This document shows positions 3,623 through 22,876 of a stretch of DNA of 64,000 nt, piece after piece. Position 1 is the first letter of the stretch; each line of letters begins with the position of its first letter. This DNA is from Gemmatimonadota bacterium (GTDB lineage Bacteria > Gemmatimonadota > Gemmatimonadetes > Gemmatimonadales > GWC2-71-9). The notes under the pieces are model-generated. The model was not told the DNA's origin, did no database searches, and saw only the letters and a list, made by a program, of their open reading frames with translations. Location of the stretch: positions 69,194-133,193 of the forward strand of contig QHTZ01000067.1 in NCBI GenBank assembly GCA_003221005.1. Reading direction: 5' to 3'. The position numbers and the translations under genes were made by a program.

Positions 3623-4783
3623 CTAGCGAGCCGCGAGCCCGGCGACTGAGCCGGGCATGTTCCCGACCACGCCCAACGTGGTGAGGTGGCCGTCAGACTC
3701 CACCCGCAGCGCCGTGATCGGGCCGCTGCCGCGCAGCTGGTACAGATAGCGTCCGTTCACGCTCAGCGCCAAATCGAGGTTGCCCGGGCCCACCGTAGCA
3801 GTGACGCCGCTCGCATCGAGCAGGCTGAGGGAGCCATCCGTGCCCACAGCGAACCCGGAGATCGTACCGCTGGCCGCGTTGGCCGAGTACGCGAAACGGC
3901 CGTTCTTGGTCACGCCCACCCAGCAGGGGGCGCCCTGGTGCGTGGCTACCGCGCCACTCACCAGTGTCACTCGGCCGCTCGAACCGAGGGTGTATGACGA
4001 TGCACTGCCCGTGGCGGCTTCGGAGACGATCAGCTCGTTCCGCAACCCGAACGCGAACCCGAACGGCTTGATGCCGGCGCCGGCAGGCGCCTGGGGCGTG
4101 GGACCGCTCGCCACACCATCGGGGGTGACCGAGTACACGTCGATGCTATTCGTATTCTTCTCAGTCACGACCAGCCACCGGCCATCGGGGCCGAACGCTA
4201 CCTGGGCGGGGTCCACCGCTGCGCCACCGAGCGGGCGCGTCGATCCCGGAATGGGCGCGAGCGCTCCGTCCGAGCCGACGGTGAACCCGCTGACGTTCCC
4301 GCTCCCACCGCCGTTGAGGACGTAAACGATGTTGTCATGAACCGTCAGGCTGATCGGCTTCGTTCCACCCGACAAATGGCGATCGGTGAGCGAAAGGCCC
4401 GCCGGGCTCACGCGGAACGCCGAGATGTCATTGCTGCCCGCGTTGACGGTGAACAACCAGCGCCCATCGTCGCTCAAAGCGAGCGCGCCCTGCGAGCCGA
4501 GGCTGCTCCCGGTCCCCGTGCCACCGGTTGCGACCGTGCCCGCCGCGGTGAGCGTACCGGCGGCCGAGCGCTGGAAGATCGCAACGGCATTTCCCCCATT
4601 GGCCGCGACCTGGTTCATCAGCGTGTACACCGCGCCCGGAGTGTCCTCTGCATCTGCGGCGCTCGCGGCGCTGGCGCTGAGCTCACGCCGCAGCGGTGCG
4701 GCGGGGCCTGTAATCCCGCGATCCCGCGAGCAGGCGGCGACACCGGCCACCGCCAGCGCAACGAGTGCGATTCTTTGTGCCAT
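3623..4783 (-). CDS. Lactonase-family beta-propeller lipoprotein
   Basis: Lipobox VAAC. Repeated propeller motifs (SDDGRWLFTVNAGSNDISAF, PCWVGVTKNGRFAYSAN). Confidence 0.85.
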   Translation of the reverse strand: MAQRIALVALAVAGVAACSRDRGITGPAAPLRRELSASAASAADAEDTPGAVYTLMNQVAANGGNAVAIFQRSAAGTLTAAGTVATGGTGTGSSLGSQGALALSDDGRWLFTVNAGSNDISAFRVSPAGLSLTDRHLSGGTKPISLTVHDNIVYVLNGGGSGNVSGFTVGSDGALAPIPGSTRPLGGAAVDPAQVAFGPDGRWLVVTEKNTNSIDVYSVTPDGVASGPTPQAPAGAGIKPFGFAFGLRNELIVSEAATGSASSYTLGSSGRVTLVSGAVATHQGAPCWVGVTKNGRFAYSANAASGTISGFAVGTDGSLSLLDASGVTATVGPGNLDLALSVNGRYLYQLRGSGPITALRVESDGHLTTLGVVGNMPGSVAGLAAR

Positions 4784-4981
4784 GGATCGAACCTCCCGAG
4801 AGAGTGTGATGCGTGCCTGCTACGGTGCCGGAAGGTTCACTCGCGCGCCGCGTAGCGGAGCTACCCGGCGAGCGATATGAGAGGCTTCTCATGGTGTTCT
4901 CATCCACGTCGGAAAACGCAACGAGGCGCGGCTTCACTCCGCCGCGCCTCGGTCTCTCGGGCGCACCGACTGCTGGGCGCG

Positions 4982-5287
4982 TTAAGGCCGATGAATGTTC
5001 GACTGACCCAGATTTGCCGGCTTCCTCGAAGGTGAAGCGGGCACGGCGGGCGTTGCCGGCGTTGCTGGGCTAGCCGGAGCAGCCACGCCACCTACGCTCA
5101 GGGATGCAGGCGTGGCGCGCGTCGCCGGCACGGCCGCGGTCGCCGGCGTCACCGCCCGATTATCAAGCCCCACGACCTCACCCCGAAAGTGCGTCGCGCG
5201 GTGCGCGGCGACCTTCGAAACATCCTGTGCTGCGAGCAGCGACGGAACGACCAGGCTCGCGGCGAGCAACACGACCTTGCGAAGCAT
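4982..5287 (-). CDS. Small secreted Pro/Ala/Thr-rich hypothetical protein
   Basis: GGAGG RBS, signal peptide (LLAA-QD) and PAT repeats. Confidence 0.6.
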   Translation of the reverse strand: MLRKVVLLAASLVVPSLLAAQDVSKVAAHRATHFRGEVVGLDNRAVTPATAAVPATRATPASLSVGGVAAPASPATPATPAVPASPSRKPANLGQSNIHRP

Positions 5288-6898: not shown

Positions 6899-7300
6899 TT
6901 ACCGGGAGGGTCGGCCGTCGCGGGCTCTGACCGCAGCGAGACGGGCCGGATCGGCCGCGTCGAGCGTGCCGATGTTCACGTGTGCCCAGATGACGCGGGA
7001 ATAGCGGAACAGCAGGGGCACGCACGCAACGTGGACGACCACAGCGACGGCGATGGCGCCGACCAGGCCCAGGCGGGGCGCCAGCACGAACATCGCTACG
7101 AGCGCAAGCACGAACGCCTCGGCGATGCCAAGCGCGTAGCTCACGTACATCGCGCCTTGAAAAAAACCGGTCTCCCGCTCAAAGCGGTGCCCGCAGACGG
7201 GACACGCCGCGTTCATCGCGAAGACACCACGGAACATCCTGCCCTGGAGACACACCGGGCAACGTTGCCGCAGAACGGCTCGCAGACGCGCCGTGGTCAT
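6899..7300 (-). CDS. DUF983-family membrane protein (Zn-ribbon)
   Basis: CPVCxxG..CPVCG followed by two TM helices. Confidence 0.8.
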   Translation of the reverse strand: MTTARLRAVLRQRCPVCLQGRMFRGVFAMNAACPVCGHRFERETGFFQGAMYVSYALGIAEAFVLALVAMFVLAPRLGLVGAIAVAVVVHVACVPLLFRYSRVIWAHVNIGTLDAADPARLAAVRARDGRPSR

Positions 7301-7304
7301 CGGC

Positions 7305-7601
7305 TCAGGGAGTGTGCAGCAGGAGGTCCTGATACTCCGGGTGTCGACGGAGGTAGGCCGCGACGAAGGGACAGCGGGGCACGACCCTGAGGTGCTCTGC
7401 GCGCGCATACTCGAGCGCGGTGTGCGCCAGCTTGTCGGCGATGCCCCGGCCCCGCAGGGCGGCAGGCACTTCGGTGTGAACCAAGACGATCCTATCAGGG
7501 AAGCGCTCATACTGCAGCTCAGCCGTCTGCCCATCCACCCGCGCCACGAACCGGTTGGCCGCGGCGTCGTTCTCTACCGCGATATCGACGAGACCCGTCA
7601 C
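7305..7601 (-). CDS. Small GNAT (YjdJ-like) acetyltransferase
   Basis: HTEVPAALRGRGIA..VVPRCPFV. GTGA overlap with the upstream gene. Confidence 0.85.
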   Translation of the reverse strand: MTGLVDIAVENDAAANRFVARVDGQTAELQYERFPDRIVLVHTEVPAALRGRGIADKLAHTALEYARAEHLRVVPRCPFVAAYLRRHPEYQDLLLHTP

Positions 7602-14249: not shown

Positions 14250-15479
14250 TTACGGGTCGAACCGGTCCAGCTTCCGGTCCCGCCGCCGCGCGAGCCAGTA
14301 GAGCGGCACGCCCAGGATCAGCGTCGCCCCTGAGGCGACCCACGCCTCAGCGATCCCCCGTGTGCGCGCGAGCCATCCCCATCCCGTCTGCCCGGCCACG
14401 CCACCCACGTTCGCGAAGAATGAATCGAGCGAGATGATCGTGGCTCGCTGCTGCGACGGGATGTGGGCGTTGAGATAGCCCTGCTTCACCGGCATCCCCA
14501 CGCCGAGTGCCATGCCATAGACGAGGTACAGCCCCACCACCACGTAGAAGTCCCGCAGCAGGCCGCACAGGACTACCGTGACCACCTGCACGACCACTGA
14601 CGCGATCAGCATTCCGGTGCGCGAGCGAACGACGCGCGACAGCGGCACGACAAGCGCATTGCCGGCGATCAGCGTGAGCGACGTGAGCGCGGCGATCACC
14701 CCCGACACCCACACCGCCTCCCGCCCCAGCAGGTCCAGGAAGTAGCGCTGCCAGCTGTAGAAGCCGAAGATCATAAAGCTCATCGAGACGAGCGACCCGA
14801 GCATCAGCGGCCGGACCACCGGGTGGTGCAAGCCGTAGCGCATGCCCTCCACGAACACGCGCCGCATCTCCGCCGGCACGCGCGACAACGCGAGCGCACG
14901 CGGGGTGTAGCCGAGCTCGCGCATCCCGAACCAGGCCAGCGCGAACAACGGCACCACGATTCCCGCCCGCACGAGGTAGGGCACGGCGAGATCGATCTGA
15001 CCCAGCAAGCCGCCGGCGAGGGTACCGACCAGCATCGCCGCGCCGAACGCCATCTGACCGCGCGCGAACACCGGCTCGAGCGGCGCGGTGTACCCCGTCG
15101 CCTTGAGAGCGTCGACCAGCCATGCGTCCACCGCGCCGGTGTAGAACGTGTAGCCGAGTCCCAGAAACACCGACACGGCGGCGAACGGCCAGAAGCCCCA
15201 CCCGAGCCGCGCGATCGCCACGTAGCAGAGTGTGGTGACGAACAAGGTGGCGAGGCACAACAGCAGCGAAATACGCCGCCCGAGGGTGTCGGCGACGACG
15301 CCGGTGGGGATCTCGAACAGGACGTTGCCCAGCGTGAACGCGGCATTCGTGAGCATCACCTGGAAGATGTCCAACCCCGCGTGGAGCTTGAACAGCGTGT
15401 CGATGCCCCAGATCAGGGACATCGCCAGGTTGAAGAGCCCGGTGATCAGCAGGTAGACGCGGATGATCTGTGCGCTCAC
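14250..15479 (-). CDS. MFS transporter
   Basis: Multiple TM helices, FEIPTGVVADTLGRR and IPSQQRATIIS. GTGA overlap with the SBP gene. Confidence 0.9.
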   Translation of the reverse strand: MSAQIIRVYLLITGLFNLAMSLIWGIDTLFKLHAGLDIFQVMLTNAAFTLGNVLFEIPTGVVADTLGRRISLLLCLATLFVTTLCYVAIARLGWGFWPFAAVSVFLGLGYTFYTGAVDAWLVDALKATGYTAPLEPVFARGQMAFGAAMLVGTLAGGLLGQIDLAVPYLVRAGIVVPLFALAWFGMRELGYTPRALALSRVPAEMRRVFVEGMRYGLHHPVVRPLMLGSLVSMSFMIFGFYSWQRYFLDLLGREAVWVSGVIAALTSLTLIAGNALVVPLSRVVRSRTGMLIASVVVQVVTVVLCGLLRDFYVVVGLYLVYGMALGVGMPVKQGYLNAHIPSQQRATIISLDSFFANVGGVAGQTGWGWLARTRGIAEAWVASGATLILGVPLYWLARRRDRKLDRFDP

Positions 15480-16345
15480 GGAACGTGCGCCTCGAGCCAG
15501 TCGTGCGCGATCGCCCGGATGTCCTGGTGCTGCACGTCGGCCAGCGCATTCAAGCGCCGCATCTCGTCGTCCGAGATCTTGCCGGTCAGCTCGCCGAGCG
15601 CGGCCGCCACCTCGGGATGGCGCCGCAACACCACTTCACGCGCGACGACCGCGGCTTCGTAGGGAGGGAAGTAATGCCGATCGTCTTCCAGGGCGACGAG
15701 ATCGAGCGCGGCGATCTGACCGTCCGTCGAGTTGCCGGCGATCATGTCCACCTTTCCGTCGGCGAGCGCGCGGTAGGTGAGTCCCAAGTCCATCGCGGTC
15801 GGAGGCGCGCGGAAGGCAAGCCTGTACACCTGCGACAGCCCGGCGAATCCGTCTGCGCGCTCCAGGAACTCGTAACCGAACCCCGCCTTCCACCGCGGCG
15901 CGACGCGCGCCACGTCGGAGATCCGCGTCAGGCCATATTGCCGCGCTTCCGTCCGGCGGATCAGAATCGCGAACGTGTTGTTGAAGCCGAACGGCGCGAG
16001 CCACCGCAGGCCGAAGCGTGCCGCATAGTCGCGCGCCACGACTCGCGCCACGCTGTCCCGATCGCTCACCGGGGGGTGCTTGAGCACCGCCGTGAACGCG
16101 GTGCCCGTGTACTCGGGATAGAGATCGATCTGTCCCGCGACGATCGCCTGATGACACACGAACGTGCCACCCAGGTGCAGGCGTCGCTCCACGGGCAGGT
16201 GCGCGCGCCGCTCGATCTGCTGCGCCACGAGCTCGGCGAGCAAGTCGGACTCCGTGAAGTTCTTGGCGCCCACGACGATCCGGTCGTGCCGGGCACACGA
16301 ACTTGCTGCGGAGAGCGCGAGCACCGCGGCGAGCAACGCGAGCAT
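15476..16345 (-). CDS. Glycine betaine/quaternary-amine ABC transporter substrate-binding lipoprotein (OsmF/OpuCC-like)
   Basis: VGAKNFTES, IDLYPEYTGT, GFNNTFAI and LEDDRHYFPPY. The start may extend to 16447. Confidence 0.9.
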   Translation of the reverse strand: MLALLAAVLALSAASSCARHDRIVVGAKNFTESDLLAELVAQQIERRAHLPVERRLHLGGTFVCHQAIVAGQIDLYPEYTGTAFTAVLKHPPVSDRDSVARVVARDYAARFGLRWLAPFGFNNTFAILIRRTEARQYGLTRISDVARVAPRWKAGFGYEFLERADGFAGLSQVYRLAFRAPPTAMDLGLTYRALADGKVDMIAGNSTDGQIAALDLVALEDDRHYFPPYEAAVVAREVVLRRHPEVAAALGELTGKISDDEMRRLNALADVQHQDIRAIAHDWLEAHVP

Positions 16346-16375
16346 GCCGGCCCGGCGTTTCCCGTGCCCTGAAGG

Positions 16376-16428
16376 GCCGGCTCGGCGTAAACGCGCGTCT
16401 TTAAAGACGCGACCTCGGCCGAGCCGGC
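16376..16428. repeat. Nested palindromic element
   Basis: 11-bp arms gccggctcggc (16376-16386) and gccgagccggc (16418-16428) enclose the perfect 18-bp palindrome cgcgtctttaaagacgcg (16394-16411). Confidence 0.75.
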
Positions 16429-16472
16429 GTTTCAACGCACGGACCACACGTGAGGCCAGGTGGGAGTCCTGC

Positions 16473-17102
16473 TCACCTTGCCCGCCACACCAGCCGCCGC
16501 TCGAGCAGCGCGAACAGGCCGTCCGCCGCCAGCGCCATCAGCGCCGCCGGGATCGCGCCCGCGAGGATCAAGGTGTCGTCCACCACCGCCACGCCGCGGA
16601 AGACGTAGACGCCGAGCCCGCCCGCGCCGATCGCGGCGCCGATCGTAGCCACGCCCACGCTCACGACCGTCGCGACGCGCACACCCGCGAGAATGACCGC
16701 CGCAGCGAGGGGCAGCTCCACCAGCCGCAGCAGCTCGGCGTCCGTCATCCCCATGCCGCGACCGGCTTCGCGGATGGCTGGGTCCACGCCCGCGATTCCC
16801 GTGTAGGTGTTGCGCACGATGGGGAGTAGCGCGTACACGATCAGCGCGGTGATCGCCGTCCAGAACCCGATGCCGAAGATCGGAATGAGGATCCCGAAGA
16901 GCGCGAGGCTCGGGATCGTCTGGAACACCCCCGCGAGCCCGAGCACGGGGGGCCGCCACGCGGGTCGGCGGGTGAGCACCACGCCGAGGGGAATCCCCAC
17001 GAGTGCCGCGGCACCGGTCGAGAGTACCACCAAGACGAGGTGCTGACCGACGAGACCGAGTGCCTCATGGGCGTTGCGCGCGAAGAACGCTACCAACCTC
17101 AT
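16473..17102 (-). CDS. Osmoprotectant-type ABC transporter permease
   Basis: QTIPSLAL, LLPIVRNTYTGI and the EAA loop EAGRGMGM..VELPLA. Confidence 0.92.
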   Translation of the reverse strand: MRLVAFFARNAHEALGLVGQHLVLVVLSTGAAALVGIPLGVVLTRRPAWRPPVLGLAGVFQTIPSLALFGILIPIFGIGFWTAITALIVYALLPIVRNTYTGIAGVDPAIREAGRGMGMTDAELLRLVELPLAAAVILAGVRVATVVSVGVATIGAAIGAGGLGVYVFRGVAVVDDTLILAGAIPAALMALAADGLFALLERRLVWRAR

Positions 17103-17851
17103 GCCGCCTCCAGGAAGCGGCGGACCTCGGGGTGCTCGTTGCGACGGAATTCGTCGGGGGTACCGAGGAACAGCAGCCGTCCCGCATGCATCAACCCGAT
17201 GCGCGTCCCCAGGAGCAGCCCCTCCCGCACGTCGTGGGTCACGAACACCATGCCCTTTCCCAGCCGCCCCTCGAGGGCGCGGAATTCCTGCTGCAGTTCG
17301 AAGCGCGTAATGGGATCGAGTGCGCCGAACGGCTCGTCCAGGAGCAGCAGCGGCGGGTCGGCAGCGAGCGCGCGCGCCACCCCGACCCGCTGCCGCTGAC
17401 CGCCCGAGAGCTGGTGCGGATAGCGTCCACCGAACGCCTCCGGGTCGAGCCCCACGAGCGCGAGCAGCTCGCGCACCCGGGCCGCGATCCGCTCTGGAGG
17501 CCAGCGTTCGAGCCGCGGCACGAGTCCCGCGTTCTCGGCCACCGTGAAATGCGGCAGCAGACCCACCTCCTGAATCACGTAGCCGATCCGCCGCCGCAGC
17601 GACGTGGGCTCGAGCGCCGCGGTCCGCTGCCCCGCCACCAACACCTCCCCCACCGAAGGCTCGAGCAGACGGTTGATGAGCTTAAGTGTGGTCGTCTTCC
17701 CAGAGCCGCTGCGGCCGAGGAGCACGAGGGTCTCTCCTGCACCCACAGTGAAGGACACGTCCCGGACGATCGGCAGGACCCGTCCCTCCTCCCCCGTCCC
17801 TCTTCCCGGCAACGTATAGCCGAGTCCCCGGACCTCGAGCACGGCGCTCAT
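17099..17851 (-). CDS. Osmoprotectant-type ABC transporter ATP-binding protein
   Basis: GRSGSGKT, LSGGQRQR and LLLDEPF. ATGA overlaps at both ends. Confidence 0.93.
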   Translation of the reverse strand: MSAVLEVRGLGYTLPGRGTGEEGRVLPIVRDVSFTVGAGETLVLLGRSGSGKTTTLKLINRLLEPSVGEVLVAGQRTAALEPTSLRRRIGYVIQEVGLLPHFTVAENAGLVPRLERWPPERIAARVRELLALVGLDPEAFGGRYPHQLSGGQRQRVGVARALAADPPLLLLDEPFGALDPITRFELQQEFRALEGRLGKGMVFVTHDVREGLLLGTRIGLMHAGRLLFLGTPDEFRRNEHPEVRRFLEAA

Positions 17852-18801
17852 TGCGCCCCCGCCCCCACCAGCACCATTTGAAAGCGGCCGTCTTCGCTCG
17901 TCCCGCGCCAGCGCTGCCCGAGGCCGGCATCTCGCAGGATTCGCAGGAACGTGTCGGCGTCGTACTTGTACGAGTGGTTCATTTCCAGCCGCTCGCCGGC
18001 ACCGAGGGTCAGGGACTCTCCGCCGAGCCGGGCGGCGACGTCGCGGGTCGCCCGGAAGTGCTTGGTGAGGGGATGCAGCCCGGGGACGCGCGCGTCCTCG
18101 CGGTCCTCGAACACGAGCTCGCCGTCGGCCTCGGTGATCCCGACGGCGTGGAGCGGCGCCCACGCGAAGCGCCGGTTCAGGGGGTTGTCATAGCCAGCGA
18201 CGGTGGCCTGGGCGGCGTAGATCTCGCCGTCCACGAGGAGCAGGTCGTCCCCGCGGAGCAGTTTCCGCAGGGCCCGCGTCTCGACCAGCGGATCGAATGC
18301 GCCGAGGGTGTTGCCCAGGAGCAAAATCAGGCGCGGCGGCGTTTCGGGATTAGGCGCCAGTGCAGTGAGGTGGTCGGTCCGTGTGAAGTCGGCCTTGACG
18401 CCCTGGGCGGGGAGCCCCGCGGCGACGGCGCCCTGACACGCGAGCTCGAGCAACGCCTGGCTCGTGTCTACGGGCGTGTAGGAGACGCGGATCCCGTGGG
18501 GTCGCAGCGCTTCGATGAGAAGCAGGTCCTTGTCCCCCTGCCCCGAGCCCAGGCTCAGGACCTCGAGCGGGCCGGGGGGTATGTAGCCAGCGAGGTCGGC
18601 GGCGGACCGAGCGATGAGCGAGCGCGACCGCACGTAGTTCCGGTAGGCGCCGTCCGAGCAGAGGGCGAGCCAGGCTCGGACGGACAGCGGAAACCAATAG
18701 AAGAATTTCTCCGGGAGCCGACGCGCGCGAAACGCGGCGACGAACTCGTCGGCGAGCGCGGTCTCGGTAAGTAGCGTGTGAGTGACGATCACGGAGTTCA
18801 A
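17848..18801 (-). CDS. EgtD-like (Methyltransf_33) SAM-dependent methyltransferase, diverged
   Basis: LPEKFFY, SLGSGQGDK, YTPVDTS, LLGNTLG, AGYDN and HSYKY follow the EgtD motif order. Start uncertain (18801 TTG or 18792 GTG). Confidence 0.8.
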   Translation of the reverse strand: MNSVIVTHTLLTETALADEFVAAFRARRLPEKFFYWFPLSVRAWLALCSDGAYRNYVRSRSLIARSAADLAGYIPPGPLEVLSLGSGQGDKDLLLIEALRPHGIRVSYTPVDTSQALLELACQGAVAAGLPAQGVKADFTRTDHLTALAPNPETPPRLILLLGNTLGAFDPLVETRALRKLLRGDDLLLVDGEIYAAQATVAGYDNPLNRRFAWAPLHAVGITEADGELVFEDREDARVPGLHPLTKHFRATRDVAARLGGESLTLGAGERLEMNHSYKYDADTFLRILRDAGLGQRWRGTSEDGRFQMVLVGAGAQ

Positions 18802-18811
18802 GAGTTACCGG

Positions 18812-18840
18812 TTGACGGGTCTGGCGGCAACCCGTATGCT
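18812..18840 (+). promoter_or_regulatory. sigma70-type promoter of the peptide operon
   Basis: TTGACG-N17-TATGCT, 51 nt upstream of the peptide ATG. Confidence 0.7.
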
Positions 18841-18891
18841 ACGTTTCGTCTGCCGTCGTCTGATTTCCACGTAAAGACGGAGGATATTCGC

Positions 18892-18984
18892 ATGCAGATC
18901 GTCGAGACGCAGGAGCTCGTGCCCACCTGTCATCGGCCTGAGGTCGTGGAGACGAGCGAGCTGCAGCCAACCTGTCACTCCTGA
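18892..18984 (+). CDS. Putative RiPP precursor peptide MQIVETQELVPTCHRPEVVETSELQPTCHS (30 aa)
   Basis: GGAGG 8 nt before the ATG. Two repeats differing at synonymous positions. First gene of an operon containing a DUF692 enzyme. Confidence 0.85.
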   Translation: MQIVETQELVPTCHRPEVVETSELQPTCHS

Positions 18985-18998
18985 CGCAGGGCGGCTGG

Positions 18999-20123
18999 AT
19001 GCAAGAGGGGGCCCGGACCGATTTCGGGCCCCTTTCGCGTTTCCTGGGCACGGAGGCGCGACTGGGGTTCGGGGGCTGGGCGGTGGGCGGCGCGGGCTGG
19101 GGGACGCCAGACGACACGCACGAGCGCGAGGCCGCGATCCGGCGCGCCGTCGAGCGGGGCGTCACGTTCTTCGACACCGCGCCGACGTACGGTGACGGCG
19201 AGTCCGAGCGACTGCTGGGCCGCGCGCTCGGAACCGTGCGCGAGCGGGTGGCGATCGCCACCAAGGTCGGCCCGCGCGACGATCCACGCGCCTCACTCGA
19301 AGCGTCGCTGCGCCGCCTCACCACGGACTGCGTGGACCTGGTGCAGCTGCACGAAGCGCTCGAACGGTGGGAATGGCAACTCGAAGCGCTCTATCGGCTG
19401 CAGCTCGAGGGAAAGGCCCTCGCGATCGGGCTCTGCAACGCCACTCACCTGCAGGTCGCGCGGGCGCTGACCATCGCTCCCCTGGCGACGTATCAGGGCA
19501 CCTACAACCTGTTCGATCGCGACGTAGAAGAGCGCGAGCTGCCACTGTGCCGCGAACGTGGCCTCGCGTTCCTGGCATTCCGGCCGCTCGCCGCAGGCCT
19601 GCTCACCGGCAAGTACCGGGAGCCTCCCGCCTTCCCGGACGATGACCACCGCCGCAAGGTCTATTGGTTCAAGGGGAAGGAGTTCGAGCGCCGCCAGCGG
19701 ACGATCGAGCGGCTGCGGCGCGTTGCGCGCCGGGAGGGCGTGTCGCTGCTCGAGCTCGCCCTGGGGTGGCTGCGCGCGCGGCCGGGGGTGAACATGGTCC
19801 TGGTGGGCGCGAGAAACCGGTCGCAGGTCGAGGAGGCGTTCGTCCCGGGCGTCGGGCCGCTGACAGCGGACACGGTGAACGAGATCGACCTCATAGTCCG
19901 CGAGGTCTTCCGCCCGGGCCGCGGCACGGCGCAACTCGAGCGGGCGGCCGCGACGTGGGGAGAGCGCGAGCGCTTCATCGCGGCGCGGCTCGACGGGAAG
20001 ACTCGCTACGAAGCGATCGCCGCCGAGTGGACCGACCGCGGCGAACAGCCGATGATCGCGGCGCAGATCAAGGTGTTCGTGGACCAGTTGGCTGAGCAAC
20101 GGTTGGTTGACGCCGACGGCTGA
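18999..20123 (+). CDS. Aldo-keto reductase with a C-terminal PqqD/RRE-like winged-helix extension
   Basis: AKR tetrad in FFDTAPTYG, IATK and VQLH. Extra ~60-aa tail RFIAARLDGKTRYEAIA..IKVFVDQLAEQRLV. Confidence 0.85.
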   Translation: MQEGARTDFGPLSRFLGTEARLGFGGWAVGGAGWGTPDDTHEREAAIRRAVERGVTFFDTAPTYGDGESERLLGRALGTVRERVAIATKVGPRDDPRASLEASLRRLTTDCVDLVQLHEALERWEWQLEALYRLQLEGKALAIGLCNATHLQVARALTIAPLATYQGTYNLFDRDVEERELPLCRERGLAFLAFRPLAAGLLTGKYREPPAFPDDDHRRKVYWFKGKEFERRQRTIERLRRVARREGVSLLELALGWLRARPGVNMVLVGARNRSQVEEAFVPGVGPLTADTVNEIDLIVREVFRPGRGTAQLERAAATWGERERFIAARLDGKTRYEAIAAEWTDRGEQPMIAAQIKVFVDQLAEQRLVDADG

Positions 20124-20129
20124 CCGCTG

Positions 20130-20915
20130 ATGGCTCTCATGGTCGGGGCGTTCTACAACCCTCAGCTCGGCGCTGAGCTCGCTGCGGCGAAGGGCATCGA
20201 CCACCTCGCCATGGCCGACCCGCCGGCAGCACACGATGCGCACTGGCCCACCATCCGCGAGCGCTACACGCTGCTGCTCCACGACTACCTCGGCCAGCTC
20301 TCCGAGCCGCTCGATGAACGCTCGATCGAGCGTGCCCGCTCCCTCGCTACGTTGTACCGCACACCGTGGATCGCCGAGCATTTCCAGTGCCTGCACACGG
20401 AAGACGGGCGCTACAACATCAACTACGTGTTCCCGCCGCTCTACACCGACGAGTTTCTGGAGCGTTTCGTCGCCAACGCACGCGCGCTCCAGGCGCGGCT
20501 CGAGCAGCCGCTCGTGATGGAGAACATCCCCGGCTTCTTCGACGTCAAGGCGAGCCAGCTCCCGGAGCCTGTCTGGCTCGCGCGTTTCTTCGACGCGACC
20601 GAGGTCGGCTTTCTGCTCGACCTGCCGCACGTTTGGCTCGAGGCCCACTACCGCGGCATGAAGCCTGAAGCGTGGCTCGCGCAATTCCCGCTCGAGCACG
20701 TAGTCGAGCTGCACGTGGCCGGCGTCGAGGAGGACGAGGACCTGCGAGGTCCCTGGATCGCGCCCACCGCCCCGTCGGAGGCCATGCTCGCGTTTCTGGC
20801 GCACGCCGTCACTCGCTGTCCCCGGGCCAAGGCTGTCACGTTCGACGCATTTTCGCCGTCGCTCACCGCCGACGTGCTGTTCCGGAGCGTTGAACGGATC
20901 CGGGGGGCGCTGTGA
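20130..20915 (+). CDS. DUF692-family multinuclear non-haem iron oxidative enzyme (MNIO), atypical
   Basis: LLLH, WIAEH, LVMEN, GFLLDLPH and VELHVAG appear in DUF692 order. Confidence 0.85.
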   Translation: MALMVGAFYNPQLGAELAAAKGIDHLAMADPPAAHDAHWPTIRERYTLLLHDYLGQLSEPLDERSIERARSLATLYRTPWIAEHFQCLHTEDGRYNINYVFPPLYTDEFLERFVANARALQARLEQPLVMENIPGFFDVKASQLPEPVWLARFFDATEVGFLLDLPHVWLEAHYRGMKPEAWLAQFPLEHVVELHVAGVEEDEDLRGPWIAPTAPSEAMLAFLAHAVTRCPRAKAVTFDAFSPSLTADVLFRSVERIRGAL

Positions 20916-21682
20916 CCGACCGGGCACTCCAGGACCTGGTGCTGCGCGCGCTGGCCGACGCCTCGTTCCGGGCGTCATCCGCCTGGCGGCAGCGTGCGCT
21001 CGCGGACCCCGCGAAGGTGGAGCGGTTCGCACGCTTCCTCGCGCGGCACTTCTACTACGAGCGGATCGTGCACTTCTTCAAGTACTCGGGGGCGCTGGCG
21101 CGTGTGACCGGCCGGCGACCAGAGGGGACGCTCCGCGGTGCCGAATTCGAAGCGCTGCTCCCCGTGGTCGTACTCGGCAGTCGGCAGACGGCTCGCGCGG
21201 TCGCCGATCTCGTCGTGCGCGAAGTGAAGGGCGGCGCCCCCGTGGCCTCGATCCCATATCGCGACGACTTGCTGCGCTACGAGGCGGCGATGATGGTCGC
21301 GGAGGCGGGGCCGAGGGTGTGGCGAGAGAACGGGAAGGGGGAAGAGGGAAGAGGAACGGGTGTCCCGGAAACCGCTGAAGGAACAGTGCTGCTGGATCTC
21401 GCCTACGACCTACCGGCGGTCCTGCCGCAGCTGCTCCAGCCGTGGACCGAGGTGCCGCAGGCGCCGCCGCGACCGGTGCGACTCCTCGTCGCGCGCTCGC
21501 CCCGCGGCCGGGTCGCGGTCGCTCGCACCGACAGCGCGGTGGCGCGCGTGGTCGAGCTCGCGGACGGCCGCCGCACCCTCGAAGAGCTCGCACGCGCGGC
21601 CGGGTTGCCGCGGAACGAGCTCGAGGCCACGCTCGCCGGGCTCACCGACCTCGGCGCCGTTCGCTTCGGGACGGGCAGCTGA
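20912..21682 (+). CDS. Putative MNIO partner protein (DUF2063-like N-terminus, C-terminal RRE-like winged helix)
   Basis: GTGA-coupled to the MNIO. Contains DLLRYE and a tail VELADGRRTLEELA..LAGLTDLGAV. Confidence 0.7.
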   Translation: MTDRALQDLVLRALADASFRASSAWRQRALADPAKVERFARFLARHFYYERIVHFFKYSGALARVTGRRPEGTLRGAEFEALLPVVVLGSRQTARAVADLVVREVKGGAPVASIPYRDDLLRYEAAMMVAEAGPRVWRENGKGEEGRGTGVPETAEGTVLLDLAYDLPAVLPQLLQPWTEVPQAPPRPVRLLVARSPRGRVAVARTDSAVARVVELADGRRTLEELARAAGLPRNELEATLAGLTDLGAVRFGTGS

Positions 21683-21693
21683 GCGCCGTGGCG

Positions 21694-22515
21694 TTACGCG
21701 GGCTTTCGCGCGCGCACGAACGCGCCCATGATCCTGCCGCTCACCTCGCGCGCCAGGACATCGACGTCGAGCCCGGCCCCAGCCAGCACGGCCCGCGCAT
21801 CCTCGAAGCTGTAGATCCGGGTCGGCTCGATCCCGACGTTTTCGAAGCCGTTCGCGCTAAGCAGCGCCTTGAACTCTTCCTCCTCGAGGGCGCCGGCCAC
21901 GCATCCCACCCACAGCTCCATGCTGCGGCGCACCTCACGCGGGATCTCCCCCCGCACCACGACGTCGGAGACGGCGAACCGGCCACCGGGCTTGAGCACG
22001 CGAAACGCCTCGGCCAGCACCCGCCGCTTATCGGCGGCGAGGTTGATGACGCAGTTCGAGATGATGACGTCCACCGACGCGTCCGGAAGAGGAATGCGCT
22101 CGATGTCCCCTTTCAAGAACTCGACGTTCTCGACCCCGGCCTTCCGCTGGTTTTCGCGCGCCAGGGCGAGCATCTCGTCGGTCATGTCGAGCCCGTACGC
22201 CTTGCCGGTCGGCCCCACGCGCCGGGCGGAGAGCAGCACGTCGATGCCCCCGCCGGAGCCGAGGTCGAGCACCACTTCTCCCGGGAGCAGCTCGGCGAGC
22301 GCAGTTGGGTTGCCGCAGCCGAGCGAAGCGAGCACGGCTTGCTCGGGGAGGGACGCGGTCTCAGCAGCCTCGTACAGGTTGGATGTGACGGGATCGCAGC
22401 CGCCGCTCGCTGCGGCGCCGCCGCAACACGAGCTTCCCTGCCCGTGCAGCACGCGCAGCGCCGCCTCTCCGTACTTCGCCCGTACGGTGTCCTTGATCAC
22501 GGTGTCGTCGGTCAT
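21694..22515 (-). CDS. arsM: Arsenite methyltransferase
   Basis: VRAKYG..SSCCG, SLGCGNP, LDLGSGGGID, ISNCVINL and LWVGCVAGAL. GGAGG RBS. Confidence 0.9.
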   Translation of the reverse strand: MTDDTVIKDTVRAKYGEAALRVLHGQGSSCCGGAAASGGCDPVTSNLYEAAETASLPEQAVLASLGCGNPTALAELLPGEVVLDLGSGGGIDVLLSARRVGPTGKAYGLDMTDEMLALARENQRKAGVENVEFLKGDIERIPLPDASVDVIISNCVINLAADKRRVLAEAFRVLKPGGRFAVSDVVVRGEIPREVRRSMELWVGCVAGALEEEEFKALLSANGFENVGIEPTRIYSFEDARAVLAGAGLDVDVLAREVSGRIMGAFVRARKPA

Positions 22516-22678: not shown

Positions 22679-22876
22679 ATGCAGGTGACGCTGGGCGAGA
22701 ACGACCGACTGGACTTCGTCCTGAAGAAGTTTCGCCGTCAGATCGCCAAGGCCGGGCTGTTCCAGGACATGAAGCGCAAGCGCTTCTTCGAGGGCCCGCG
22801 CGCTCAGCGACGGCGGAAGGACAAGGCAGCGGCCCGCCGCAAGGCGAAATCCGCGCACCGTCGCGAACACCAATAA
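22679..22876 (+). CDS. rpsU: 30S ribosomal protein bS21
   Basis: [30 protein letters not shown]; 65 aa, basic. Confidence 0.85.

Follow-up and report, generated by a model that had tools for sequence, protein, structure and literature searches.

A probably PqqD-derived, sheet-less tail on an aldo-keto reductase in an MNIO peptide operon of Gemmatimonadota

The protein described here is encoded at positions 18999-20123 of the forward strand in a 64,000-nucleotide stretch of contig QHTZ01000067.1 from a Gemmatimonadota bacterium; this whole stretch is called the window below. The reading frame opens with an ATG and yields 374 residues, comprising an aldo-keto reductase (AKR) barrel and about 55-70 extra C-terminal residues beyond it. 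We read the protein as an NAD(P)H-dependent reductase dedicated to tailoring within an operon in which a multinuclear non-heme iron-dependent oxidase (MNIO) would modify a short peptide, and its tail as a winged helix derived from PqqD, stripped of the β2-β3 region and fixed to the end of the barrel. The probability of this reading is roughly 0.55. As far as sequence and models tell, the tail is probably a sheet-less PqqD variant that works like the fusions between enzymes and recognition elements (RREs) of ribosomally made peptides that are modified after translation (RiPPs), and not a canonical RRE. We are confident that the AKR itself is an enzyme of the pathway.

The barrel is recognized by Pfam as Aldo_ket_red (PF00248) over residues 21-299, with an E-value of 1.2e-59 and 202.2 bits against a cut-off of 24 bits. 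Asp59, Tyr64, Lys89, and His118, which we take from the usual AKR motif context to be the catalytic tetrad, are invariant in 41 of 41 aligned family members. The original prediction had described a complete AKR with a D-Y-K-H tetrad, and by the barrel profile and the invariant tetrad positions the enzyme is indeed predicted to be intact. The nearest NCBIfam AKR models all score far under their cut-offs, so the protein falls into no named AKR equivalog. The full-length AlphaFold2 model has a mean predicted local distance difference test score (pLDDT) of 88.3 and a predicted template modeling score (pTM) of 0.88, with pLDDT of 86-96 in the tail blocks. Foldseek aligns this model to AKR11B (1pz1) with an E-value of 1.6e-22 over 302 columns, and to AKR11 structures in general over only about 300 columns. 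These solved enzymes (Bacillus subtilis YhdN/GSP69, 1pz1; IolS, 1pyf; Gluconobacter AKR11B4, 3n2t) share the barrel fold and the catalytic motif context with the window AKR at 32-34% identity. They end where the barrel ends, whereas the window AKR continues into the tail, and their entry titles give no link to a peptide cluster, in contrast to the setting of the window AKR. None of the 51 PDB sequence matches to the AKR is aligned past query residue 308, and about 75 residues after the barrel have no alignment to any solved AKR sequence.

In both AlphaFold2 models (full-length, and tail alone with a pLDDT of 84.1), the tail is folded, confidently modeled, and winged-helix-like. Helices span residues 311-317, 322-328, 337-346, and 354-366 in the two models alike, and the last three form the winged-helix arrangement of three α-helices that is one of the defining features of RREs. 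Family alignments separate this helical half from what precedes it. The linker of residues 300-319, which takes the place of a β2-β3 segment seen in a long-tail sister family, is the least conserved internal stretch, with a majority fraction of 0.63. Residues 320-369 reach 0.82 with 12 invariant columns, compared with 0.78 for the barrel. The helical tail is not decaying; it is constrained as strongly as the catalytic barrel.

VIA-align finds 33 chains at Z ≥ 5 for the tail and none at Z ≥ 8, scores under 8 being common with this method. The matches of RRE type are PqqD 3g2b (Z 6.7, root-mean-square deviation 2.3, 57 aligned), the lasso peptide B1 proteins 6jx3 (6.5) and 5v1u (6.0), the PbtF RRE 8t19 (5.4), and PqqD 5sxy (5.3); 3g2b, 6jx3, 5v1u, and 8t19 stand among the top 20. 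Winged helices from the C-terminus of methyltransferases (7.4) and from GATOR/SEA proteins (7.0) are matched as well, together with AsnC/Lrp and Fur regulators (5-6). The fold is thus winged-helix-like, and RREs are not picked out by the fold search by itself, their matches being intermixed with generic winged helices. A role of the winged helix in DNA binding is, by inference, unlikely: its third helix is acidic as well as hydrophobic, and the domain is firmly joined to an enzyme that belongs to a biosynthetic operon.

Profile comparisons point more specifically to PqqD. Pfam PqqD (PF05402) aligns residues 326-370 to positions 21-67 of its 67 positions, with an E-value of 0.14 and 12.9 bits for the whole protein and 0.0089 and 16.8 bits for the tail alone; the cut-off is 23.4 bits. 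PqqD is the only Pfam family matched by all 40 tails compared, weakly throughout (best E-value 4.6e-5), the next families being PKMT_2nd and DUF5372 with 8 of 40 each. A comparison profile was built from 29 PqqD segments that score over the Pfam cut-off in genomes of the same phylum. Against it, hhalign gives the 40 tails a probability of 86.3% and an E-value of 4.8e-6 over 46 columns, placing tail residues 26-71 on PqqD positions 20-67. The score of 32.0 compares with 8.1 for the reversed tail and at most 13.1 in 20 column shuffles, whose probability is 1% or less. With every tail matching PqqD and this distance from the shuffles, the match is beyond chance. The three-helix half of the tail probably shares its origin with PqqD, judged by these profiles, and we consider common ancestry of the tail with PqqD/RRE domains rather likely.

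The original prediction had placed a PqqD-type pattern at about 19945-20120 (residues ~316-374). Both the pattern and the domain hold up, the first through the 40 matching tails and the controlled hhalign comparison, the second through the sub-threshold Pfam match and the folded helices of the models. PqqD and solved RREs (PF05402; 3g2b, 5v1u, 6jx3, 8t19) resemble the window tail in their three-helix half, by profile (86%, PqqD positions 20-67) and by structure (Z 5.3-6.7). Like the window tail, many RREs occur as fusions with tailoring enzymes in clusters for peptide maturation. They differ from it in having a three-stranded sheet, which the window tail lacks, and in that the tail stays under the Pfam cut-off.

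The same data can be read as convergence, with the tail as a generic winged helix or three-helix bundle that has acquired the PqqD pattern (a hydrophobic helix, a Leu-Asp-Gly turn, and a C-terminal Gly-Leu-Val) independently. Pfam matches that are all sub-threshold, a PDB without sequence or Foldseek match, top VIA-align matches to methyltransferase and GATOR winged helices at Z 7.0-7.4, and the PKMT_2nd matches to 8 of 40 tails are what such a domain would give. We nevertheless regard convergence as very unlikely: no other family matches all 40 tails, the hhalign score lies far over the reversed and shuffled controls, the sister family carries the alignment into the strand region as far as PqqD position 7, and RRE-type domains are found in precisely this kind of genomic setting.

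The part of PqqD that is missing from the window tail can be located with the long-tail sister AKR family (P0140, P0148, and P0153-P0157; 383-430 residues, 39-45% identical to the window protein). Its members have about 17-20 more residues directly before the first tail helix. The sister tail aligns to PqqD positions 7-67, the last strand included, with an hhalign probability of 73.5% (31.5% when the sister family is queried as whole proteins). PqqD positions 1-19/20 are unmatched by the window tail. Because the sister family retains these residues and they align to the PqqD strand, the short tail looks like an RRE-type domain from which β2-β3 is gone.

Several observations weigh against a PqqD-derived domain that serves a tailoring reductase as an RRE would. 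The strands of the tail are just one or two residues long in both models (308-309, 332, and 370-371), as the original prediction anticipated when it called them not clearly recognizable. The three-stranded antiparallel β-sheet expected ahead of the helices is absent from both models, and the alignment to the sister family leaves a gap of about 17 residues in the sheet region. All PqqD matches of the window protein stay under the Pfam cut-off, and none of the nine proteins scanned from 31 representative matches to the tail profile has PqqD over it. The tail profile finds no PqqD protein among PDB sequences, only a chance methyltransferase with an E-value of 0.58. The winged helix, for which the original prediction had named Foldseek as a check, is seen in the models and by VIA-align; Foldseek itself returns no match of the tail model to the PDB at E ≤ 0.001, and in VIA-align the RREs are not set apart from generic winged helices (Z 5-7.4). 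In P0131, a protein of 99 residues, a partial match to Peptidase_M15_4 is combined with a C-terminus that resembles the tail; apart from AKR domains, this is the only company in which the tail was seen, and the gene call may be chimeric or frameshifted. From its sequence, the MNIO partner protein has at its C-terminus a second candidate peptide-docking domain in the cluster. Finally, the likeness of the window MNIO to ApyH of the aminopyruvatide (apy) pathway lies far below family level, and the substrate residue would differ, repeated Cys-His units standing against the C-terminal Asp described for apy in PMC11117315.

Known RREs consist of three helices and a three-stranded sheet, to which the precursor is bound as a fourth strand, as described in PMC11117315. 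Since the window tail has no such sheet, this way of binding a leader is not available to it. Lacking both a Pfam match over the cut-off and the β-sheet, two features by which RREs are defined, the tail is filed here as a PqqD-derived sheet-less variant and not as an RRE. Of the RRE proposed in the original prediction, the probable descent from PqqD therefore stands, and the canonical domain, with a sheet that takes the leader as fourth strand, does not. When the tail was searched by features in the ESM Atlas, the scores were 0.75-0.76, too low to be of use.

The main rival to our reading is a re-purposed lid or docking domain. The tail would then be a former RRE that no longer binds peptide alone and now serves as a rigid lid or sub-domain, or as a dock for the complex of MNIO and partner; the partner C-terminus would deliver the peptide, or the AKR would act on a released small molecule. 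The loss of the β2-β3 region fits this picture, as does the high pTM of 0.88, which points to a single rigid body. Weak matches of the partner to NGO1945_C and ApyI cover the C-terminal half of the protein, and truncated RRE-type domains have been described for MNIO partner proteins (PMC12452194). The helical half, on the other hand, is conserved like the barrel and retained across the two phyla and the two tail variants, which shows that it has a function, though not which one, and the partner C-terminus is less PqqD-like than the AKR tail, with an hhalign probability of 7.7% compared with 86.3%. On balance we regard the lid or dock as unlikely. Aligning the AKR tail to the partner protein gives an hhalign probability of 4% and hence no indication that the tail was copied from a partner domain. 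A complex prediction for the AKR and the precursor peptide (score 0.01, mark 0.32) speaks neither for nor against binding. Whether the tailoring reductase touches its peptide through the tail itself is a separate matter, on which we lean slightly to the negative side.

The tail is rare. Its profile, searched against 1.84 billion representatives at a threshold of E ≤ 0.001, matches 31 proteins. Among the nine of these that were scanned, six have an AKR domain (several are contig fragments), two are without a Pfam family, and one has another domain. In a word-indexed search, 118 of the 120 homologues listed align over 96% or more of the query, with identities of 64-99%, and PF00248 is the sole precomputed annotation of all homologues listed. 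The fusion of AKR and tail is essentially confined to this cluster type. Had the same tail been common on AKRs outside peptide clusters, the original prediction would have lost its basis; in the searches the tail turns up almost exclusively on this AKR family, and the loci of the family are all in the cluster.

A scan of species-representative genomes yielded 74 loci, of which 70 carry the family (50-78% identity) and four an ordinary AKR (33-37%). The family loci are titled Gemmatimonad- in 67 cases, "uncultured bacterium" in one, and Actinomycetota in two. In 68 of 70, the precursor gene is the immediate upstream neighbor of the AKR, and the other two loci start inside the AKR gene. A methyltransferase gene precedes the AKR in 67 loci, both from Actinomycetota included; the MNIO follows the AKR in 65, and the partner follows the MNIO in 59, all misses for these three genes being at contig ends. 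The tail is present on the AKR in 66 of the 67 loci that hold its 3′ end, with L053 as the exception. In that locus (4055-5092) the AKR reading frame departs after about residue 351, and in L068 (6001-6957) the AKR match is 957 nucleotides long compared with about 1120 elsewhere; both look damaged or mis-assembled. The four ordinary AKR loci have no tail, MNIO, methyltransferase, or other cluster neighbors.

The precursor is nearly invariant. It consists of two units in which acidic residues are followed by Glu-Leu-x-Pro-Ser/Thr-Cys-His, and in 68 of 70 family loci it is 30 residues (two repeats) or 39 residues (three repeats) long. Two units are found in 66 loci and in the window, three in the two Actinomycetota loci, and four in L117, a long-tail locus; the latter three loci share the gene set of the others. 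Extra genes were identified in L052 (7023-8168, 8973-9920, and 10684-11778) and L010 (7593-9140 and 10594-11985). Both have an alpha/beta-hydrolase (S33-like) between AKR and MNIO, and an LssY_C protein or a beta-propeller-like protein between MNIO and partner; L052 has a beta-lactamase-fold protein downstream. About 30 other loci have gaps of a comparable size. These optional hydrolases are candidate releasing or processing enzymes, and their presence in some related clusters (the alpha/beta-hydrolase in L052 and L010, the beta-lactamase-fold protein in L052) is also what one would expect if the AKR, with its tail as a lid or dock, acted on a small molecule after release.

At the level of the phylum, the AKR family (E ≤ 1e-60) occurs in 19 of 401 sampled genomes and in 6 of 147 genera. 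The window query did not find it in G034 and G139, which are near-complete genomes from the same genus as the window, and all 11 genomes of another genus of the same family have it. The distribution of the AKR family is patchy, even within a genus. The closest solved relatives of the enzyme are general AKR11 enzymes, as they would be for a housekeeping reductase that merely adjoins the MNIO genes. This explanation is extremely improbable, given that each of the 70 family loci belongs to the cluster, to the extent that its contig covers it, in two phyla, that the intergenic gaps are very short, that only 19 of 401 sampled genomes have the family, and that the tail occurs almost nowhere else. 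The placing of the AKR in an MNIO peptide-maturation operon, as originally proposed, is supported by the common strand and short gaps in the window and by the same arrangement in the family loci.

The following order of events would account for the cluster. Within every Pro-Ser/Thr-Cys-His unit of the acidic peptide, MNIO and partner would oxidize the Cys or a residue next to it. The C-terminal loop of AKRs shapes the substrate pocket, and the tail, which would stand at the usual place of this loop, may help to keep the peptide at the barrel mouth, either through one of its repeat units or in its partner-bound form. The AKR would then pass a hydride to a carbonyl-type group made by the oxidation, and the EgtD/EasF-like methyltransferase, with the hydrolases where they are present, would finish the product. 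That the substrate of the AKR is a carbonyl or imine made by the MNIO has, in our estimate, an even chance of being correct.

One of the nearest described systems is apy, in which the MNIO ApyH acts with an RRE-containing partner, ApyI, and makes an α-keto acid (PMC11117315). ApyH and ApyI are the nearest named NCBIfam families for the window MNIO (105 bits) and partner (25.5 bits), and the MNIO and partner genes overlap in both clusters. The keto group made by ApyH is then modified by a further enzyme (PMC11117315), which resembles the order proposed here. The apy cluster is, in contrast, without a reductase, a word absent from the main text of PMC11117315, while the window cluster has the AKR. 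Precedent for shortened RRE-like domains in MNIO clusters comes from the PME-type 2 MNIO partners with truncated RRE-type domains (PMC12452194). There, the truncated domains sit on a DUF2063-like partner, whereas the one in the window sits on a second enzyme. The main text of PMC12452194 names no aldo-keto reductase, oxidoreductase, methyltransferase, or Gemmatimonadota, although its supplements may list the cluster.

In our literature search, no paper connected an AKR with MNIO or RiPP pathways and none dealt with this cluster, which the supplements of the MNIO survey PMC12452194 may list; in the literature found, the cluster type is undescribed. Among known RiPP reductases, the lanthipeptide dehydroalanine reductases of LanJ type and ElxO use NAD(P)H to tailor modified ribosomal peptides, as we propose for the window AKR. 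They belong to other superfamilies (zinc-dependent, flavin-dependent, or short-chain dehydrogenases), and none is known to us as a fusion with a PqqD-like domain. Ribosomal peptide pathways are found and understood chiefly by way of their RRE-type domains. A tail that is sheet-less, conserved at the level of the barrel, and fused to an enzyme class not found reported in RiPP pathways therefore points either to re-use of such a domain after peptide binding was lost or to a new binding mode. The cluster as a whole, with its Cys-His repeat peptide, MNIO, AKR, and EgtD-like methyltransferase in two phyla, is a well-defined target for a new MNIO reaction and a follow-up reduction.

A bolder version of the new binding mode is conceivable, in which the PqqD remnant without its sheet reads the acidic repeat through its helices only and steers hydride transfer onto the MNIO-oxidized Cys-His sites. 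We think this quite unlikely. If true, MNIO chemistry would gain its first NAD(P)H-dependent reduction. With the EgtD/EasF-like N-methyltransferase and the hydrolases of some clusters also at work, the two to four repeats would then give several copies of a small modified Cys-His metabolite or a metal-binding peptide, and the Cys-His product could be thio- or oxazol-histidine-like, possibly N-methylated.

Table 1. Features of the AKR cluster in the window, and precursor genes of variable repeat number in three related loci (positions in those loci)
Feature	Positions	Strand	Basis or remark
Divergent EgtD/EasF-like S-adenosylmethionine methyltransferase (Methyltransf_33)	17848-18801	-	Pfam, 85.6 bits
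Sigma-70-like promoter match upstream of precursor gene	18812-18840	+	Two hexamers, 17-nucleotide spacer; consensus match only
Precursor peptide gene	18892-18984	+	30 codons and stop; two repeats, each ending Pro-Thr-Cys-His
AKR-tail gene	18999-20123	+	374 residues; open reading frame, Pfam, family alignment, model, Foldseek
Aldo-keto reductase (α/β)8 barrel, residues 21-299	19059-19895	+	Pfam, 202 bits; D59/Y64/K89/H118
Variable linker, residues 300-319	19896-19955	+	Short strand and helix 311-317; models, family alignment, majority fraction 0.63
PqqD-like three-helix half of tail, residues 320-369	19956-20105	+	Pfam PqqD positions 21-67; hhalign 86.3%; conservation 0.82
MNIO oxidase (MbnB/TglH/ChrH family)	20130-20915	+	Pfam PF05114, 94.3 bits, cut-off 25
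MNIO partner (DUF2063-like/ApyI-like)	20912-21682	+	Weak NGO1945_C, HTH_20, and ApyI matches
Variable-repeat precursor, locus L056	5883-6002		
Variable-repeat precursor, locus L065	5865-5984		
Variable-repeat precursor, locus L117	about 7250-7442		

Within the window, the genes of the operon are closely packed (Table 1). Fourteen nucleotides separate the precursor gene from the AKR and six the AKR from the MNIO, and the start of the partner overlaps the MNIO stop by four. A GGAGGA-like ribosome-binding site lies about 8 nucleotides upstream of the precursor gene. The promoter-like site, a consensus match only, is the sole one in 18600-21900, where 50 shuffles gave a mean of 0.0. The MNIO scores 105.2 bits with ApyH, its nearest NCBIfam model, against a cut-off of 400 bits and hence below equivalog level. 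The partner matches are weak and lie over its C-terminal half, NGO1945_C with an E-value of 0.0014 and ApyI with 25.5 bits against a cut-off of 200; hhalign gives this C-terminus 7.7% with PqqD, next to 86.3% for the AKR tail. A search of the genome found one MNIO and one EgtD/EasF-like methyltransferase. The latter scores 61.6 bits with egtD (cut-off 290.9 bits) and 58.3 bits with EasF, and is distant from EgtD structures.

Directly downstream of the methyltransferase gene, a betaine-type ATP-binding cassette importer (OpuAC/OsmF-like binding protein, permease, and ATPase) occupies 15476-18163 on the reverse strand. The importer may belong to the pathway; it is kept beside the cluster in the Gemmatimonadota loci, is absent from the two Actinomycetota loci, and lies elsewhere in L117. 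Taken with the Cys-His peptide and the EgtD/EasF-like N-methyltransferase, the importer gives the idea of a betaine-like, histidine-derived product. On the other side of the operon, a class I S-adenosylmethionine methyltransferase with a Cys-rich N-terminal segment, reminiscent of arsenite methyltransferases, is encoded at 21694-22515 on the reverse strand. The 74 related loci gave no tblastn match to it, so that it probably lies outside the cluster.

Near-identical DNA is present in 18 soil-metagenome runs of 15 studies. Contigs from two soil RNA libraries cover 18816-19010, which includes the whole precursor gene, with no difference, and 20251-20543, inside the MNIO gene, with one difference. 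DNA can be present in such libraries, and the contigs are a weak hint at transcription. Other parts of the stretch are without an RNA-library contig, from which nothing follows about their expression. The downstream border of the cluster region is marked by the gene for ribosomal protein S21 (22680-22876, forward strand), which lies at the end of a long spurious open reading frame.

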